Source: a virus (Duplodnaviria > Heunggongvirae > Uroviricota > Caudoviricetes). Taken from it: DNA of 6,034 nt. The notes under the pieces are model-generated. The model was not told the DNA's origin. It searched no databases and saw only the letters and a program-made list of their open reading frames with translations. Positions 1 through 6,034 of the stretch are shown here, one piece after another (position 1 is the stretch's first letter; each line of letters starts with the position of its first letter). A program made the translations under genes and the position numbers. The stretch lies in IMG/VR virus record IMGVR_UViG_2585427743_000017; one strand, written 5' to 3'.

Positions 1-357
1 TATTATCGCCTTAAAGCGCTGATGGAACAGTGCTATCAGGGGCATGCTGATGGAAGATACAGCAAACTTTTGACCAGGCTGAATAATAGCGATCTGCTGC
101 TTCTGGATGACTGGGGGCTGGAACCTCTCTCATCAGAACAGCGTAGCGACCTGCTGGAAATAGTGGATCTGATGTACCAACGAGGCTCAATCATCGTAGT
201 GAGCCAGTTGCCGGTGGAAAACTGGTACAAAATGATCGGAGACTCCACACATGCGGATGCCATCCTAGATCGACTGGTTCATGGCAGTATCAAGATCGAA
301 CTTAAAGGAGAATCAATGCGGAAAATACAATCTCCGTTGACCGAAGGAGATCAGTGA
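1..357 (+). CDS. istB: IS21-family transposition helper ATPase IstB, 3' portion only (N-terminus lies upstream of the window)
   Basis: The reading frame is open from base 1 with no stop before the Met at 22, and ends at TGA 355-357. The translation carries an IstB-type Walker B region (LLLLDDWG) and the conserved C-terminal motif ADAILDRLVHGSIKIELKGESMRK, which resembles the IS21 IstB C-terminus. Family assignment is from memory; the specific IS was not identified. Confidence 0.8.
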   Translation, partial: YYRLKALMEQCYQGHADGRYSKLLTRLNNSDLLLLDDWGLEPLSSEQRSDLLEIVDLMYQRGSIIVVSQLPVENWYKMIGDSTHADAILDRLVHGSIKIELKGESMRKIQSPLTEGDQ

Positions 358-393
358 AGGTAATTTAAAAACGGTTCTGTGAAAGTGACACGA

Positions 394-426
394 ACCGATC
401 TCCATCGATGTTACTCACCGATCTCC
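394..426. repeat. Direct repeat ACCGATCTCC x2 (394-403 and 417-426), candidate multiple terminal repeats / transposase binding sites of the IS end
   Basis: Two exact 10-mer copies 23 bp apart, directly downstream of istB. IS21-family ends are known to carry multiple short terminal repeats. Confidence 0.4.
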
Positions 427-427
427 T

Positions 428-1879
428 TCACGGTAATACGCAAGTGTCTTTCAGCGGTCTGCCGGTATCATTATCGAGCTGACCATCCAGTGCATATCCG
501 TCGATATTTTTTGAGATGTATTTCGCGATATACCCCGCAGCACCGCCCCGGTTAAGGTGTTTCGCCTGAAAACGGTTTCGCGCGGCTCCTCTTTCGTCGC
601 CATCCTCTTTGAGCGCATAGCGACGCATGATTTCGATAATCTGGTTACGCTGGCGTGGATTACAAAAAAGCATCATATGCCAGTGCGGCGTTCCGTCGTG
701 GTGTGGCTCGACGACACGCAAACCGTAGACCTGTAAATCATTATCCTTGAATGCCGTGCGCATCAGGCTCCAGATACGGCAGAGATAACGCTGCGCATCC
801 TTTGGATTAAATGCCTCATCATTCCAGCCGTGATTAAGCTGGACGGTTTTACTTTCGCCTTTTCCGACCTGACGTGTCGGGTGATACTTTGACGGCGTGG
901 TCAGCGTGATAAACATCCCCACATCACCCTCTGCGGCGGCGTAACGCTCAATACCGGCAATGGTGTTCATCAGCTCCATCCGGCGAATTTCAGGATTAGA
1001 AATACTGCCCATCACCTTACTGATAAGGTCGATGCGCTCGCCGGTTTCCCTGTTTTCAAGGTCACACGATTTAAGAAATTCCAGATTTGCCTGGCGGCGT
1101 GCACGCACATCACGAATGGCATGTTTACTGGCATAAGGAGAACGGTCTTTATTCACCTCCCCGACAGCAATCAGTAACGCCTCATGCCAGCGCATACGCT
1201 GGCCTTTAAGCTGATGAGTCCACCACTCATCGTTAAACAGACGGGCAATGGCAGAATATGCCTGCCTCGTGGTCATCTGCCCTTTACGGTATTTTTTCCA
1301 GTAGAGAGGGGAAATATTGAAAGCACGTGCAGCGCCAGCAACATGACCATAGAGGTGAGCCTGCGCCTCATCCGTAAACAGCGATTCTTTTTCGCCATGC
1401 GCATCCACCCAGGCATCGCAGAGTTCCTCATACATCATGAAAAGCTGCGATGAGATACGGGCGGCAAACTTTTTCAGCTCCTTGTCATTCATCCCCGGCA
1501 GACGCGCATAATGGTCACGCTCTGCCAGAAACAGCAACGACGCGTCGGTGTTCATTTCATGGCGCTGATTCACACGCTCAATGCGCGGCCATAAACGACG
1601 CTGAAAAGTGGATGTGAGAAAATAAAACCCGTGCACCGGGCTTTTATTGCGCCGGATGTAGTCATAGCGTGAAGTAAACAGCGAGCGCAAAAAGTAAGGC
1701 AGGCGGTTAATCGTGGATAAAACACCTTGCACCTGACGCATCTCGTCACGTGTAAGGGGTCTTTCGCGCCCGACAGCCTCGCGTGGCGCGTTCCATGCAT
1801 AAGCACCGGTAAGCGCCTTACCGGTGCCTGCGGCAAATGCTGACGGAGGGACAAAACGCCCGGAGGCTTTAACGGCCAT
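428..1879 (-). CDS. A: Phage P2 GpA-type rolling-circle replication initiation endonuclease, C-terminally truncated by the IS insertion (about 483 codons, versus 761 aa for P2 A as recalled)
   Basis: The translation contains the HUH motif (HWHMM) and a YIAKYISK motif. Counting from the ATG at 1879 (MAVKASGRF...), the two tyrosines fall at positions 450 and 454, matching the catalytic Tyr450/Tyr454 of P2 A. The six-frame ORF extends to a TTG at 1921, but ATG 1879 is the likely start. The frame stops at 428-430 within or next to the IS terminus. Confidence 0.8.
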   Translation of the reverse strand: MAVKASGRFVPPSAFAAGTGKALTGAYAWNAPREAVGRERPLTRDEMRQVQGVLSTINRLPYFLRSLFTSRYDYIRRNKSPVHGFYFLTSTFQRRLWPRIERVNQRHEMNTDASLLFLAERDHYARLPGMNDKELKKFAARISSQLFMMYEELCDAWVDAHGEKESLFTDEAQAHLYGHVAGAARAFNISPLYWKKYRKGQMTTRQAYSAIARLFNDEWWTHQLKGQRMRWHEALLIAVGEVNKDRSPYASKHAIRDVRARRQANLEFLKSCDLENRETGERIDLISKVMGSISNPEIRRMELMNTIAGIERYAAAEGDVGMFITLTTPSKYHPTRQVGKGESKTVQLNHGWNDEAFNPKDAQRYLCRIWSLMRTAFKDNDLQVYGLRVVEPHHDGTPHWHMMLFCNPRQRNQIIEIMRRYALKEDGDERGAARNRFQAKHLNRGGAAGYIAKYISKNIDGYALDGQLDNDTGRPLKDTCVLP

Positions 1880-2144
1880 ATGAGCCAAAAGCCTCTGAAC
1901 AACGCTTGCTGAGTTGCTCAACCTGCACGTTTAAATCAGCAAAAGACTTTGCGCTTCCGGTCAGAATATCGTGATGCATCAGGCCTGAAACGAGCTGGCT
2001 TAATTTCGGGTAATAACCAACCACCGCCAGCCATTCCTGACCGGCGTTTTTACCGCTTTCCGCTCTCTTTTTCTCGTGGAGAATAAACTGAAAGCTGTCA
2101 CTGGTAACGACATAACGTTCGCCAATTTCAATACGAATACTCAT
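1869..2144 (-). CDS. Small early-operon protein, P2 orf83 position (function unknown)
   Basis: 91-aa ORF with ATG at 2144 overlapping the stop of the upstream gene (ATGA), and ending 8 nt inside the A start; position corresponds to orf83 of the P2 map. Confidence 0.65.
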   Translation of the reverse strand: MSIRIEIGERYVVTSDSFQFILHEKKRAESGKNAGQEWLAVVGYYPKLSQLVSGLMHHDILTGSAKSFADLNVQVEQLSKRCSEAFGSYGR

Positions 2145-2365
2145 GCCGTTCTCCGGTAATGTTTGTTTTTTGCTTCAAAGACTGACTGACAGGAAACACA
2201 ACGCGTGGCTGACGGGTAAGCCGCACGACGGGCAGCAGGTATTGGCGCGTCACACTCTTCGCAAACCAGCGCAGAAGCACCGCAATGTTTTACCCTTGCC
2301 GCGTTAATCTGGCGCTCCAGTAATTCAGCCTGTTGTTCCTGAATAAAATCTACGTTGTCCGGCAT
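2141..2365 (-). CDS. TraR/DksA-family C4 zinc-finger protein (P2 orf82 position)
   Basis: 74 aa with a CxxC-(17)-CxxC arrangement (CEEC ... CVSC), typical of the TraR/DksA RNAP secondary-channel binders. Its start overlaps the upstream stop (TAATG). Confidence 0.75.
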   Translation of the reverse strand: MPDNVDFIQEQQAELLERQINAARVKHCGASALVCEECDAPIPAARRAAYPSATRCVSCQSVFEAKNKHYRRTA

Positions 2366-2667
2366 TACCAGTTCCTTTTGTCGTTCAGTTTTTTAAATTC
2401 ATCAGCGCAATAGCTGGCGATTTCTGTCGTTAATTTCGTCAGTTCATCCACGGAGGAAATTTGCTTGTGAAATACAGCGCGTTTAACAAGTAAATTGACC
2501 ACATCAGACAGGAGGTTTAATTCACTCTGATAAATCGCGATAACAGATTCAGTTATTTCGCGTTTTTCTTTATCAAGACCAAGTTGAATAAGAGACAAAT
2601 CGCCATTTTTCATAACGGCGATTTTTAAGGCATTGTTCAGTAAAACAACTGAACGAGAACAGGACAT
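2365..2667 (-). CDS. Small early-operon protein, P2 orf81 position (function unknown)
   Basis: ATG at 2667-2665 overlaps the orf80 stop (TGATG) and is preceded by GGGGAGGTG; the six-frame track starts one codon earlier at a TTG. About 100 aa. Confidence 0.6.
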   Translation of the reverse strand: MSCSRSVVLLNNALKIAVMKNGDLSLIQLGLDKEKREITESVIAIYQSELNLLSDVVNLLVKRAVFHKQISSVDELTKLTTEIASYCADEFKKLNDKRNW

Positions 2668-2891
2668 CAAAGCACCTCCCCGCGAGACAAGCCGATGTTG
2701 TGAAATTTTTCCGACTCCTGACTGAGCAGCTCGACTATCTCCACGCGGGATAACTCCGCCTTTGTGATGTGGCGAATCATGGCGTCAAGATGAGAAGAAA
2801 AGCGCGTCGCTGCATCGGCCTGTGCTTCGGTTCTGGCCTGTTGCAGCAGTAATGCGTATTTACCGCACTGATTTTCAGAAACTGTATGCAT
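2667..2891 (-). CDS. Small early-operon protein, P2 orf80 position (function unknown)
   Basis: I prefer the ATG at 2891 (MHTVSENQ...), which is preceded by GGAGAA at a 6-nt spacing, over the GTG at 2924 used by the ORF track. About 74 aa. Confidence 0.6.
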
Positions 2892-2954
2892 GACTTTCTC
2901 CAGGCAAAAAGAAGCCCCGCACAATTAAGTGCGTTAAAAACTCTGGTTAATTAC

Positions 2955-3455
2955 TTAATGCAGATATTGCTCTGGTTTTACCGATGTCAGAATTGTCGGT
3001 GCATACTCAAACAGACTGAATAATTCACGTAATGCACGGAATAAAGCATCACGCCAGTAACATGATTCTTCATTAATTCGCCAGTATGGCTGGTTGAATT
3101 CTTTTTCTGTCAATCTGGCATGCATAAATAAAGTACGCCGCTGACTGACTGTTAAAAAACTAATATATGCATACTCACTTGCACCGACCTGACGGCGTTT
3201 TGAGAATGCCCCACGCAATTCATCAATTGCACAAACCAGCCGTTCACGTTCGACATCGTTCATTTCTTCGAAACGCATCGTTGCGTGACGTTGTTTTAAC
3301 TGCGCATGGAAGCAAACCGTTAGCCGTTCACGTTCCATCATCTGATTATAATAATCACATGTCTCCTGCCAGCGAGGGACGGCCAGATGCTTACCAATTA
3401 TCCGGCGCATAGCTGCTGGCTGTTTTTCGACGAGATTAAGTGTCATCACTGTCAT
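2955..3455 (-). CDS. B: Phage P2 replication protein B (DnaB-helicase-associated, needed for lagging-strand synthesis)
   Basis: 166 aa, identical in length to P2 B, and placed between orf78 and orf80 as in P2. Identity is by recall, not alignment. Confidence 0.75.
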   Translation of the reverse strand: MTVMTLNLVEKQPAAMRRIIGKHLAVPRWQETCDYYNQMMERERLTVCFHAQLKQRHATMRFEEMNDVERERLVCAIDELRGAFSKRRQVGASEYAYISFLTVSQRRTLFMHARLTEKEFNQPYWRINEESCYWRDALFRALRELFSLFEYAPTILTSVKPEQYLH

Positions 3456-3622
3456 TTCCAGACCCTCCGGCTTTTCAGAAAGGTCAGAGCCTTTTTTAAC
3501 GGACTCTGTTTTTTGGTGCGGATAATGATTCCCTTACGCCCCTTACCGTGGGTGATGGTGAAGTCAATCGCCCTGGGGCTTTCGTTACGCAGTAACTGAG
3601 CAATACAACGAGGTTCATTCAT
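3452..3622 (-). CDS. Small basic protein, P2 orf78 position (function unknown)
   Basis: ATG at 3622 is preceded by a strong Shine-Dalgarno (GTTAAGGAGAACCGT-ATG) that contains the cox stop codon. 56 aa, very Lys/Arg rich. The ORF track's longer version starts at a GTG at 3646 inside cox. Confidence 0.6.
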   Translation of the reverse strand: MNEPRCIAQLLRNESPRAIDFTITHGKGRKGIIIRTKKQSPLKKALTFLKSRRVWK

Positions 3623-3632
3623 ACGGTTCTCC

Positions 3633-3908
3633 TTAACGTGGTTCACCGAGACCTAACCACATCAACCAGCCGTCACGAATCTCTTTAGGGCGGCTTTCAT
3701 AAGCCAGTTTTAGTCCGTTATTCCATGCCGGAAGGTATACCCAATATTCACCTGCACGACCTGAAGCTGATTGTGGATCGGTCATATCAATTACAGGCAG
3801 CTTTCCTTTATCGATCATCCGACGAACCGCTCCTGTCGATTTTCCTATTAGTTTTGCGAACTCCTGATAAGGAATCGCATCAGTCATGAGTGTTACTTGC
3901 TTGCTCAT
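3633..3908 (-). CDS. cox: Phage P2 Cox (excisionase / directionality factor and repressor of Pc)
   Basis: 91 aa, first gene of the leftward operon. It is divergent from C and preceded by a GGAGG RBS. The sequence (MSKQVTLMTDAIPYQEFAKLIGKSTGAVRRMIDKGKLPVIDMTD...) matches my recollection of P2 Cox. Confidence 0.85.
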   Translation of the reverse strand: MSKQVTLMTDAIPYQEFAKLIGKSTGAVRRMIDKGKLPVIDMTDPQSASGRAGEYWVYLPAWNNGLKLAYESRPKEIRDGWLMWLGLGEPR

Positions 3909-3989: not shown

Positions 3990-4029
3990 ATCTAAACTAA
4001 ATACTATTGAGATCTAAACACCATGTCAA
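3990..4029 (-). promoter_or_regulatory. Early promoter Pe with operator: -35 TTGACA (4029-4024), 17-bp spacer, -10 TAGTAT (4006-4001), flanked by 8-bp direct repeats ATCTAAAC at 3990-3997 and 4012-4019 (C repressor half-sites O2/O1)
   Basis: Read on the minus strand there are consensus -35 and near-consensus -10 hexamers with a 17-nt spacer. Two exact 8-mer direct repeats, 22 bp centre to centre, straddle the -10, matching the described P2 operator architecture. The -35 overlaps the C start codon. Confidence 0.7.
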
Positions 4030-4322
4030 ACACGATAAGCGAGAAGATAGTCTTAATGCGAAAATCAGAGTATTTGAGCAGACAACAACTTGCTGATTTA
4101 ACAGGGGTTCCGTATGGCACGCTGAGTTACTATGAAAGTGGTCGTTCAACACCTCCAACAGATGTCATGATGAACATCCTGCAGACCCCACAATTCACCA
4201 AATACACTTTATGGTTCATGACCAATCAGATCGCTCCTGAGTCCGGGCAAATTGCGCCCGCTCTCGCACACTTTGGGCAAAACGAAACAACGTCGCCCCA
4301 CTCCGGTCAAAAGACTGGTTAA
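4023..4322 (+). CDS. C: Phage P2 immunity repressor C
   Basis: 99 aa, same length as P2 C, divergent from cox and upstream of int. The sequence (MSNTISEKIVLMRKSEYLSRQQLADLTGVPYGTLSYYESGRSTP...) contains a helix-turn-helix-like segment (QQLADLTGVPYGTLSYYE). Confidence 0.85.
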   Translation: MSNTISEKIVLMRKSEYLSRQQLADLTGVPYGTLSYYESGRSTPPTDVMMNILQTPQFTKYTLWFMTNQIAPESGQIAPALAHFGQNETTSPHSGQKTG

Positions 4323-4437: not shown

Positions 4438-5451
4438 ATGGCAATCAAAAAACTCGATGATGGTCGATATGAAGTGGACATCCGCCCTACTGGACGTAAT
4501 GGAAAACGCATCCGTAGGAAGTTTGATAAGAAAAGCGAAGCTGTCGCTTTCGAGAAATACACGTTGTACAACCACCACAATAAAGAATGGCTATCAAAAC
4601 CAACAGACAAGCGACGTCTGTCGGAGCTGACACAGATCTGGTGGGATTTAAAGGGTAAACACGAAGAGCATGGGAAATCTAATCTTGGAAAAATTGAAAT
4701 CTTCACAAAAATAACGAATGACCCATGCGCATTTCAAATTACGAAATCGCTTATCAGCCAGTACTGCGCCACCCGAAGAAGTCAGGGTATTAAACCTTCG
4801 AGTATCAATCGTGATTTAACATGTATTAGCGGCATGTTTACAGCCCTGATTGAAGCGGAGTTATTCTTTGGTGAGCACCCTATCAGAGGAACAAAAAGGC
4901 TTAAGGAGGAAAAACCAGACACAGGCTATCTCACGCAGGAAGAAATTGCCTTACTGCTTGCTGCTCTTGACGGCGACAATAAAAAGATTGCGATTCTTTG
5001 CCTGAGTACTGGGGCACGTTGGGGAGAAGCAGCTCGTTTGAAAGCAGAAAATATCATCCATAACCGCGTCACGTTTGTTAAAACGAAAACAAACAAACCA
5101 CGCACCGTCCCGATCTCAGAGGCTGTTGCCAAAATGATCGCGGATAACAAACGAGGTTTTTTATTCCCTGATGCTGATTACCCTCGCTTCAGACGAACAA
5201 TGAAAGCAATAAAACCGGATTTGCCAATGGGGCAAGCCACACATGCACTAAGGCACAGCTTTGCCACTCATTTCATGATTAATGGAGGAAGTATTATCAC
5301 GCTACAACGGATACTAGGTCACACGCGGATTGAACAAACTATGGTTTACGCTCATTTTGCGCCAGAGTACCTTCAGGACGCCATTTCTCTTAATCCGCTA
5401 AGAGGTGGTACTGAGGCCGAGAGTGTCCACACAGTGTCCACAGTAGAGTAA
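4438..5451 (+). CDS. int: Phage P2 integrase (tyrosine site-specific recombinase)
   Basis: 337 aa, same length as P2 Int, with a GGAGGG RBS 8 nt upstream. Catalytic signature residues are present: R in GARWGEA, H-x-x-R in HALRHSFATH, and Y in HTRIEQTMVYAHF. Confidence 0.9.
   Translation: MAIKKLDDGRYEVDIRPTGRNGKRIRRKFDKKSEAVAFEKYTLYNHHNKEWLSKPTDKRRLSELTQIWWDLKGKHEEHGKSNLGKIEIFTKITNDPCAFQITKSLISQYCATRRSQGIKPSSINRDLTCISGMFTALIEAELFFGEHPIRGTKRLKEEKPDTGYLTQEEIALLLAALDGDNKKIAILCLSTGARWGEAARLKAENIIHNRVTFVKTKTNKPRTVPISEAVAKMIADNKRGFLFPDADYPRFRRTMKAIKPDLPMGQATHALRHSFATHFMINGGSIITLQRILGHTRIEQTMVYAHFAPEYLQDAISLNPLRGGTEAESVHTVSTVE
5423..5442 (-). promoter_or_regulatory. Tandem direct repeat GTGTCCACA x2 (reverse complement TGTGGACA), candidate Int arm-type binding sites of the att P-arm
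   Basis: Two exact 9-mers at 5423-5431 and 5434-5442, overlapping the last codons of int. The reverse complement matches my recollection of the P2 Int arm-site consensus TGTGGACA. Confidence 0.5.
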
Positions 5452-5530
5452 CGTTTAAGGGCTTTCAGTGGTAATTTATGCCGCTCAAACCCGCATTGTA
5501 CCGTTGAAAGCCCCTACTGGTGACACCCTA

Positions 5531-5557
5531 AATCTCCCTTACACGGGCTTATTTTTT
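5531..5557 (-). other. P2 att core (27 bp; reverse complement AAAAAATAAGCCCGTGTAAGGGAGATT), i.e. the prophage/host junction core
   Basis: Exact match, in reverse complement, to the 27-nt P2 attP/attB core as I recall it, located 80 bp past the int stop. No Int arm repeats are found beyond it, consistent with non-phage DNA on the far side. Confidence 0.75.
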
Positions 5558-5621
5558 TATGCATAAGCCCTATCTCTGGTAACCGTCTTCCATTGACCAC
5601 ATCGATAGAATCTCCCTTCAT

Positions 5622-5654
5622 AGCACGATGCCTTTCACGTAACGGCATCGTGCT
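5622..5654. other. Perfect 11-bp inverted repeat (AGCACGATGCC ... GGCATCGTGCT) with an 11-nt loop
   Basis: Seen directly in the sequence between the att core and the lipoprotein gene. No adjacent T-tract, so its function is unclear (protein binding site or RNA structure). Confidence 0.4.
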
Positions 5655-5716
5655 CGCACAGGTTCCGGCTAAGCACAACCAGAACGCGCATGTTTGACGC
5701 TTACCAAAAAATATTC

Positions 5717-6034
5717 TCACTCTCCACATTTGAATGTCAGACGAGCGACGCCATGTAATCCTGCACCTTCTGTCTTCAGGTCAACTATCTGCATTTTTTT
5801 GCCCTGAGTAACACAGAAATGGGCTGCATCATTTTTTACTATATTTTCTGCACCAGATATTCTGCCCCTGGCTAAAGAAGCTTCGGCTTCGGTGTAGTAT
5901 TGGTTATCGAGTTTACGCTGAATATTACTTTTATATGCAAGACCAAATTTACCGATACTTGTCTCATCATTATGCACAGCACAACCAGACACAATAAAAA
6001 TACTAATTAATGATATAGCAGCTATCTTTTTCAT
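5717..6034 (-). CDS. Small lipoprotein of unknown function (105 aa); flanking host gene or cargo gene next to the att site
   Basis: The N-terminus MKKIAAISLISIFIVSGC is a classical lipoprotein signal peptide with a lipobox (VSGC). The ATG is at the window edge, so the RBS is unseen. The coding sequence is AT-rich compared with the prophage. Its length and att-adjacent position are compatible with E. coli yegR, but I cannot confirm that from memory. Confidence 0.6.
   Translation of the reverse strand: MKKIAAISLISIFIVSGCAVHNDETSIGKFGLAYKSNIQRKLDNQYYTEAEASLARGRISGAENIVKNDAAHFCVTQGKKMQIVDLKTEGAGLHGVARLTFKCGE

Follow-up and report, generated by a model that had tools for sequence, protein, structure and literature searches.

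What is encoded by four small genes that are packed, stop codon over start codon, between two replication genes of a tailed phage, and is such a cluster new? The question is raised by a stretch of 6,034 nucleotides (nt) from the IMG/VR virus record IMGVR_UViG_2585427743_000017 (Caudoviricetes), called the window in the following, for which a preliminary description had pointed out a tightly coupled cluster of unknown function between genes B and A. The four genes, given here under the names that the present analysis assigns to them, are the following.

orf80: 2667-2891, minus strand, 74 amino acids from the ATG, or 85 amino acids if the TTG at 2924 is used (open reading frame (ORF) scan)
orf81: 2365-2667, minus strand, 100 amino acids (ORF scan)
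orf82: 2141-2365, minus strand, 74 amino acids, TraR-family C4 zinc-finger protein
orf83: 1869-2144, minus strand, 91 amino acids (ORF scan)

The cluster is the already known orf80-orf83 block from the early operon of a phage P2 (genus Peduovirus) prophage. A query of 1201 nt (window 1800-3000) is 98.6% identical to phage P2 at the nucleotide level, the P2 annotation beneath the match names orf80, orf81, orf82 and orf83 with B and A on either side, and the order B - orf80 - orf81 - orf82 - orf83 - A is the same as in P2. At the protein level Orf82 and Orf83 are identical to their P2 counterparts, Orf80 differs in one residue, Orf81 in two and gpB in three; orf82, orf83 and the upstream gene cox do not differ from P2 in a single nucleotide. 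The P2 genes were reportedly sequenced by Liu, Saha and Haggard-Ljungquist in 1993.

All coordinates and junctions of the four genes between B and A proved correct on direct reading and by script. The orf80/orf81 junction (window 2665-2669, catca) reads TGATG on the coding strand, the orf81/orf82 junction (2363-2367, catta) reads TAATG and the orf82/orf83 junction (2141-2144, tcat) reads ATGA, and a purine-rich Shine-Dalgarno sequence is present 5-9 nt upstream of each of the four starts. One more overlap, absent from the preliminary description, is found at the downstream end: the ATG of gene A at 1879 and the orf83 stop share 11 nt, so that the coupling reaches into the essential replication gene A.

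Taken together, we consider it likely that the locus is a segment of the Pe operon of a P2 prophage in which Orf82 is an RNA polymerase (RNAP)-binding TraR homologue, Orf80, Orf81 and Orf83 are accessory binding proteins, and the copy at hand is silent. The observation is thereby confirmed, its earlier interpretation is partly supported, and nothing in the window is unusual. As the P2 genes have been annotated since the 1990s and the one protein with a recognised motif, Orf82, was characterised in 2022, the cluster as first described matters little; the remaining question concerns the roles of the families DUF2732 and DUF5405 to which the other three proteins belong, and which are carried by a prophage type that was recovered from about 610 genomes among 5,426 complete ones of E. 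coli.

Orf82, the TraR homologue

The assignment of the product of 2141-2365 to the TraR/DksA proteins, for which a profile search had been set beforehand as the test, held: Orf82 matches PF01258 with 43.6 bits (cutoff 24.9) and TIGR02419 with 78.3 bits (cutoff 59.7). Its best solved relative is TraR of the F plasmid (PDB 5w1s_M, E 8.9e-10). The TraR subfamily was defined by a CxxC-x17-CxxC signature in a protein of about 73 amino acids that lacks the N-terminal half of DksA. Orf82 shows this architecture, with C35-E-E-C38, 17 intervening residues and C56-V-S-C59 forming a C4 zinc motif within 74 amino acids, and the cysteine spacing had thus been read correctly. In TraR, the DxxDxA motif reaches the region of RNAP's active site, and the arginine pair R48/R49 contacts the rim helices and the Si3 insertion of the beta' subunit. 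The N-terminus of Orf82 reads D3-N-V-D6-F-I8 and hence has both aspartates of DxxDxA, with the alanine replaced by isoleucine at position 8, and the arginine pair is kept, since PIPAARRAAYP of Orf82 aligns with PIPEARRKIFP of TraR.

The Orf82 of the window is the Orf82 of P2, residue for residue and base for base, and the identical P2 protein was among five TraR homologues purified by Gopalkrishnan et al. (mBio 2022; PMC9239242). In that study, its competition with DksA for RNAP, at the DksA site, was about as effective as that of TraR, and it inhibited the rrnB P1 promoter without guanosine tetraphosphate (ppGpp) at a half-maximal inhibitory concentration (IC50) of 250 nM, compared with about 50 nM for TraR (PMC9239242). 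A dksA deletion was complemented upon induction of P2 orf82, which the authors place in the Pe operon, and the lower activity was ascribed in part to the isoleucine in place of alanine at position 8 of the DxxDxA motif, which does not abolish function (PMC9239242). A 1993 report, as far as it is cited in the same paper, describes that overexpression of Orf82 halts cell growth (PMC9239242). Orf82 is already CHARACTERISED, and the label 'unknown function', which the preliminary description had extended to the whole cluster, is out of date for orf82.

As was shown by experiment for the identical P2 protein, Orf82 enters the RNAP secondary channel, binds there at the DksA site and inhibits the promoters of rRNA and ribosomal protein genes independently of ppGpp. 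Such inhibition would presumably slow the growth of the host and free resources for lytic development.

Genes, operon context and the state of this copy

For statistics on conservation we assembled 66 P2-like viral loci (contigs) with equal length of the cluster, which represent 62 haplotypes. In a scan of viral contigs that was aimed at diverse Orf83 loci, every locus obtained shared at least 99% identity with P2, and these were used for the conservation statistics. Each of the 66 loci has the four ORFs intact and the three junction motifs unchanged, with start, stop and Shine-Dalgarno sequences preserved throughout; orf81 occurs in alleles of 99 or 100 amino acids. The ratio of nonsynonymous to synonymous polymorphism (pN/pS) is 0.13 for orf80, 0.19 for orf81, 0.17 for orf82 and 0.05 for orf83. 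Because their products all pass curated Pfam cutoffs, because the frames are intact in every locus and because pN/pS lies between 0.05 and 0.19, orf80-orf83 are real genes rather than ORFs that arose by chance. In some database entries (P0005, P0013, P0088, P0090, P0126 and P0144) Orf80 is fused with Orf81, Orf81 with Orf82 or Orf82 with Orf83 to proteins of 143-175 amino acids, most likely as a result of frameshifts or of errors in gene calling where the genes overlap.

The features of the window other than the four genes are listed from left to right.

1-442, plus strand: end of an IS21-family insertion sequence (IS) element in gene A, with the 3' part of istB at 22-357
443-1879, minus strand: gene A, rolling-circle initiator, truncated (PF05840, 414 bits; P2 annotation)
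2597-2624, minus strand: hairpin inside orf81 with an 11-base-pair (bp) stem and a 6-nt loop (terminator-like scan)
2892-2954, minus strand: spacer between B and orf80, with a weak hairpin at 2918-2933
2955-3455, minus strand: gene B, P2 replication protein, directly upstream of the cluster (P2 annotation)
3452-3622, minus strand: orf78
3633-3908, minus strand: cox
4001-4029, minus strand: early promoter Pe, TTGACA / 17 nt / TAGTAT (promoter scan; coincides with the annotated -35 and -10 of P2 Pe)
4023-4322, plus strand: C repressor gene
4438-5451, plus strand: int
5717-6034, minus strand: yegR, host lipoprotein gene, at the right end of the window

Transcription of the cluster from Pe, as previously proposed, agrees with the position of this promoter at 4001-4029, which matches that annotated for P2. 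A promoter scan of the same strand revealed no promoter-like site inside the cluster, and Pe was the sole strong one upstream. The genes orf80-orf83 would accordingly be transcribed only after relief from the C repressor, within a cox-orf78-B-orf80-81-82-83-A message, and their translation is probably coupled via the overlapping stop and start codons. The overlaps had also been taken to imply stoichiometric co-expression; the overlaps are real and coupling is plausible, but strict stoichiometry does not follow from them.

Two hairpins deserve comment with respect to this message. The one between B and orf80 (2918-2933) consists of a 5-bp stem followed by GGGCUUCUUUUUG and corresponds to the putative rho-independent terminator annotated in P2 (P2 26980-27007). 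The spacer sequence is well conserved among P2-like loci, and the fold is no better than that of shuffled sequence (z-score -0.9). A terminator at this place that uncouples the cluster from B was therefore considered and set aside, the hairpin being weak; there must be substantial read-through because the essential gene A lies downstream and has no promoter of its own. The other hairpin lies within orf81 (2597-2624); its 11-bp stem is perfect and closes a loop of 6 nt (AAAUCGCCGUU-AUGAAA-AAUGGCGAUUU). Its predicted folding energy is -13.8 kcal/mol (z-score -3.98), and none of 200 shuffled sequences was as stable. All 11 pairs are kept in 61 of the 66 related loci, with a variable loop and C-to-U changes that give G.U pairs; compensatory double changes were not seen across the 66 loci. 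A search of the window against Rfam returned no RNA family. The hairpin could serve for attenuation within the operon, for processing or as a site at which translation pauses.

The genomic surroundings indicate what has become of this copy. The prophage/host junction (attachment (att) site) is located between int and yegR (5452-5716), which fixes the integration locus of the prophage. On the left side, homology to P2 ends at window position 443 with the junction at 442/443, where the IS21-family element abuts gene A; in E. coli records an IstB of the ISEc12 family is annotated beneath the left-end stretch. Of its 761 codons, gene A retains codons 1-479, and the IS junction separates this retained part from the ori nick site inside the gene. 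At least 80% of the window is held by the approximately 610 E. coli genomes mentioned above, and the whole window is present as one colinear piece in none of the complete E. coli genomes in the collection, the best record covering it in three pieces.

The preliminary description had stressed that all four genes remain intact although replication is disabled. Both facts are correct, gene A being truncated, the ori nick site cut off from it and the ORFs intact, yet they do not carry the evolutionary weight that was placed on them. As orf82, orf83 and cox show no nucleotide difference from P2, the IS insertion is probably recent, and the intact C gene suggests that Pe should be repressed in the lysogen. 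Since the insertion is probably recent and the promoter probably off, the intactness of the block is uninformative on selection in the host. The block in this prophage may be best described as a silent, recently stranded copy, stranded because the IS21-family element cut gene A.

Families and distribution of Orf80, Orf81 and Orf83

That the other three proteins have no recognisable motifs turned out to be incorrect at the level of profiles. Orf80 belongs to DUF2732 (PF10809, 39.9 bits, gathering cutoff 25; phrog_128, E 4.4e-34), and both Orf81 (119.5 bits) and Orf83 (50 bits) match DUF5405 (PF17399, gathering cutoff 21.6) over nearly the full profile. Two DUF5405 proteins are annotated in such prophages by the NCBI pipeline as well. 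DUF2732 (PHROG 128) and DUF5405 (PHROG 154 and 265) are families without an established function, and literature searches with orf80, orf81, orf83, DUF5405, DUF2732 and the protein accessions retrieved nothing functional. AlphaFold 2 (AF2) models predict a helical hairpin for Orf80 and a four-stranded beta-sheet with two helices for Orf83; Orf81 and Orf83 may both be pictured as a beta-sheet plus a helical hairpin, the modelled member being Orf83. No solved structural relative was found for the predicted fold of the Orf83 family, and PDB sequences, when searched with profiles of the three families, yielded matches at chance level only. Longer proteins of the Orf83 family, which were inspected for fused domains, turned out to be read-through artefacts or a tandem duplication and contained no informative partner domain. 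All three proteins are small and roughly neutral (isoelectric points 6.0-7.9) and have no recognisable catalytic motif; most likely they act through binding of another macromolecule.

The presence of two DUF5405 proteins in one operon raises the question of their relationship. Orf81 and Orf83 do not match each other in BLASTP, and an hhalign comparison of two shallow alignments gave a probability of 8.7% (E 0.0038) over the C-terminal 41 columns only. A more diverse hidden Markov model (HMM) of the Orf83 family, built from 118 representatives, matches residues 53-95 of Orf81 with 16 bits and with the invariant cysteine aligned. The Yersinia phages vB_YenM_201.16 (3182-3490 of locus L087) and 06.16-2 (2907-3212 of locus L091) have the order gpB - DUF2732 - DUF5405 - DUF5405 - gpA and no TraR gene. 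In these phages the ORF at the orf81 position matches both family HMMs (33-34 and 15 bits) and so forms a bridge between the P2 paralogues. From these profile comparisons we read Orf81 and Orf83 as distant, divergent DUF5405 paralogues, with Orf81 as the putative fast-diverged duplicate of Orf83; the paralogy is claimed at the profile level only, because of the negative BLASTP result and the hhalign probability of 8.7%.

The families differ in their reach. With tblastn, relatives of Orf80 and Orf81 can be detected in no more than about 75 phages, close ones of the P2 type; for Orf81 these are 75 phage records only, all at least 80% identical. Relatives of Orf83 were found in 177 phage records, including the lambdoid phage HK446, Erwinia phage phiEt88 and Hafnia phage yong1 and also N4-like Salmonella and Klebsiella phages and large Bacillus phages, and an exhaustive profile search (E <= 1e-3) collected 1,049 clusters at 50% identity. 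The Orf83-family gene of lambdoid-type phages is located in the leftward early accessory region, between abc2/erf, exo/recT or ssb and xis/int (HK446, 3992-4282 of locus L002; phiEt88, 3507-3776 of locus L088; yong1, 3504-3788 of locus L089). No TraR-type zinc finger is encoded within about 3.5 kb of the Orf83-family gene in these lambdoid-type phages. The Orf83-type DUF5405 family could represent an unrecognised class of early host-directed phage protein in phages of Gram-negative and Gram-positive hosts.

The early regions of 16 diverse A-encoding Peduoviridae, anchored on gpA, were compared for the presence of the four genes. DUF2732 is present in nine, TraR in five, an Orf83-like gene in five and an Orf81-like gene in three; seven regions have none of the four. 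Given these seven regions, genes of the orf80-83 type are an accessory mosaic and are dispensable for A-type rolling-circle replication in general, and the compact arrangement of all four is peculiar to P2 and phages closely related to it. One linkage is recurrent: all five TraR-bearing phages have DUF2732, and the TraR start abuts the DUF2732 stop in four of them, the exception being P2, in which orf81 lies in between. DUF5405 shows no association with TraR, neither in the 16 early regions nor in non-P2 phages.

Possible roles and comparison with known systems

Which role could the three accessory proteins have? The most plausible of the specific proposals, to which we nevertheless assign a rather low probability, is that the TraR-type Orf82 has a physical partner or a modulator in at least one of Orf80, Orf81 and Orf83. 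A precedent is phage VP882, in which a TraR homologue joins with QisA, encoded by the gene directly upstream, in a complex and thereby causes a stronger RNAP-dependent growth arrest, and in which a third protein, QtiQ, switches the QisA-TraR complex off (10.64898/2026.07.27.740977, a preprint of July 2026). The qisA/traR junction is the same ATGA overlap as seen here, and the association of TraR with DUF2732 in all five TraR-bearing Peduoviridae would arise by chance with a probability of about 0.03 (five of five within nine DUF2732-positive genomes out of 16), shared ancestry being ignored; in four of the five the two genes abut. Moreover, P2 Orf82 binds RNAP like TraR and yet inhibits about 5-fold less, which leaves room for a co-factor. 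On this analogy the likeliest candidate for a regulator of Orf82 would be the DUF2732 helical hairpin Orf80, and the DUF5405 pair may also be considered; we propose this assignment tentatively, as an unlikely but specific possibility. Several observations argue against such partners. QisA and gp63 (QtiQ), for which no Pfam family was found, gave negative HMM scores and no significant BLASTP match in comparison with Orf80, Orf81 and Orf83. DUF2732 occurs without TraR in four of nine phages, and DUF5405 does so in the two Yersinia phages and in lambdoid, N4-like and Bacillus phages. Finally, Orf82 is active alone, both in vitro and in vivo. If Orf80, Orf81 or Orf83 did modulate the TraR-RNAP interaction, phage control of a stringent-like response would commonly be a multi-protein switch, for which P2 would offer a tractable E. 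coli system and a second, non-homologous example of the QisA/QtiQ type.

Two other readings are weaker still than a modulation of Orf82. The first, which had been suggested in the preliminary description, takes Orf80, Orf81 and Orf83 for effectors of anti-defence or host takeover whose action does not depend on Orf82. They are small proteins of an early operon with the mosaic presence and absence that is typical of accessory genes, the Orf83 family is widespread among unrelated phages in their early or accessory regions, one example being the lambdoid 'ea' region next to abc2, an anti-RecBCD gene, and its predicted fold is without a solved relative. In spite of this, none of the four proteins had a PADLOC match at E <= 0.1, and no literature on a defence role of Orf80, Orf81 or Orf83 was found, so that the idea of anti-defence candidates received no support from either source. 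The strong conservation, with a pN/pS of 0.05 for orf83, is unlike the rapid turnover that is usual for arms-race genes, and the known variable hotspots of P2 are located elsewhere, between A and Q. We therefore regard independent effectors as improbable.

The second reading follows the database label and takes Orf81 and Orf83, perhaps also Orf80, as replication accessory factors for the initiator A, for which we see little likelihood. Members of phrog_154 and phrog_265 are labelled 'replication initiation protein', and the same label is found on Orf81- and Orf83-like proteins in RefSeq. It apparently spread by annotation transfer; the misspelling 'Relication initiation protein' occurs in one UniRef name and in one GenBank record. 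No experimental basis for the PHROG/RefSeq label was found. The genomic position is in line with a link to replication inasmuch as orf83 overlaps A translationally, and an Orf83-like gene is located just upstream of A in P2, EtG and the two Yersinia phages and one gene further off in SW9. Elsewhere the Orf83 family is found near genes of DNA metabolism, namely abc2/erf, exo/recT, ssb, or the genes for dUTPase, dihydrofolate reductase (DHFR) and thymidylate synthase. However, the Orf81- and Orf83-type proteins showed neither a consistent linkage to an initiator nor an initiator, nuclease or DNA-binding domain, the features by which a replication initiation protein was to be recognised. That Orf80, Orf81 and Orf83 are not translated at all and owe their conservation to RNA or DNA elements, a view with which the stable conserved hairpin within orf81 would be compatible, can practically be dismissed in the light of the low pN/pS values, the frames intact in all 66 loci, homologues at the protein level down to about 30% identity in distant phages and the confident AF2 models.

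The reading that we prefer, an RNAP-binding Orf82 accompanied by three accessory binding proteins, can be placed beside several known systems. The module of VP882 resembles that of P2 in having a TraR homologue in a repressor-controlled early operon and an ATGA overlap of its gene with an upstream gene of unknown fold. In VP882 the products QisA and TraR work together on RNAP; QisA (199 amino acids) and QtiQ are not detectably similar to Orf80, Orf81 or Orf83, which makes this an analogy of organisation only. TraR of the F plasmid and Orf73 of phage lambda are alike to Orf82 in length, in the C4 zinc finger, in D3 and D6, in the Arg-Arg pair after the first CxxC and in the C-terminal helix. 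Functionally, P2 Orf82 shares with TraR the site on RNAP, the ppGpp-independent inhibition of rrnB P1 and the complementation of a dksA null mutant, whereas it differs from TraR and Orf73 in the isoleucine at position 8, in the higher IC50 (250 nM versus about 50 nM) and in that full complementation of dksA needs induction.

In 186-like (Eganvirus) early regions, such as those of Erwinia phage EtG and Salmonella phage SW9, the DUF2732 gene abuts the TraR gene in the early lytic operon, which also contains, as in P2, a DUF5405 (Orf83-like) gene upstream of A. Unlike P2, they lack a second, orf81-type DUF5405 paralogue, contain intercalated extra genes (for a DnaQ-like exonuclease or a 276-amino-acid ORF) and have cII and fil upstream instead of the arrangement of orf78 and B. 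The closest system is P2 itself, whose orf80-orf83 (NC_001895, P2p36-P2p39) are the same genes in the same order, with the same overlaps and in the same operon as those of the window; here, the context alone differs, in that the block resides in a prophage beside yegR and upstream of a gene A that is broken at codon 479 by an IS21-family element.

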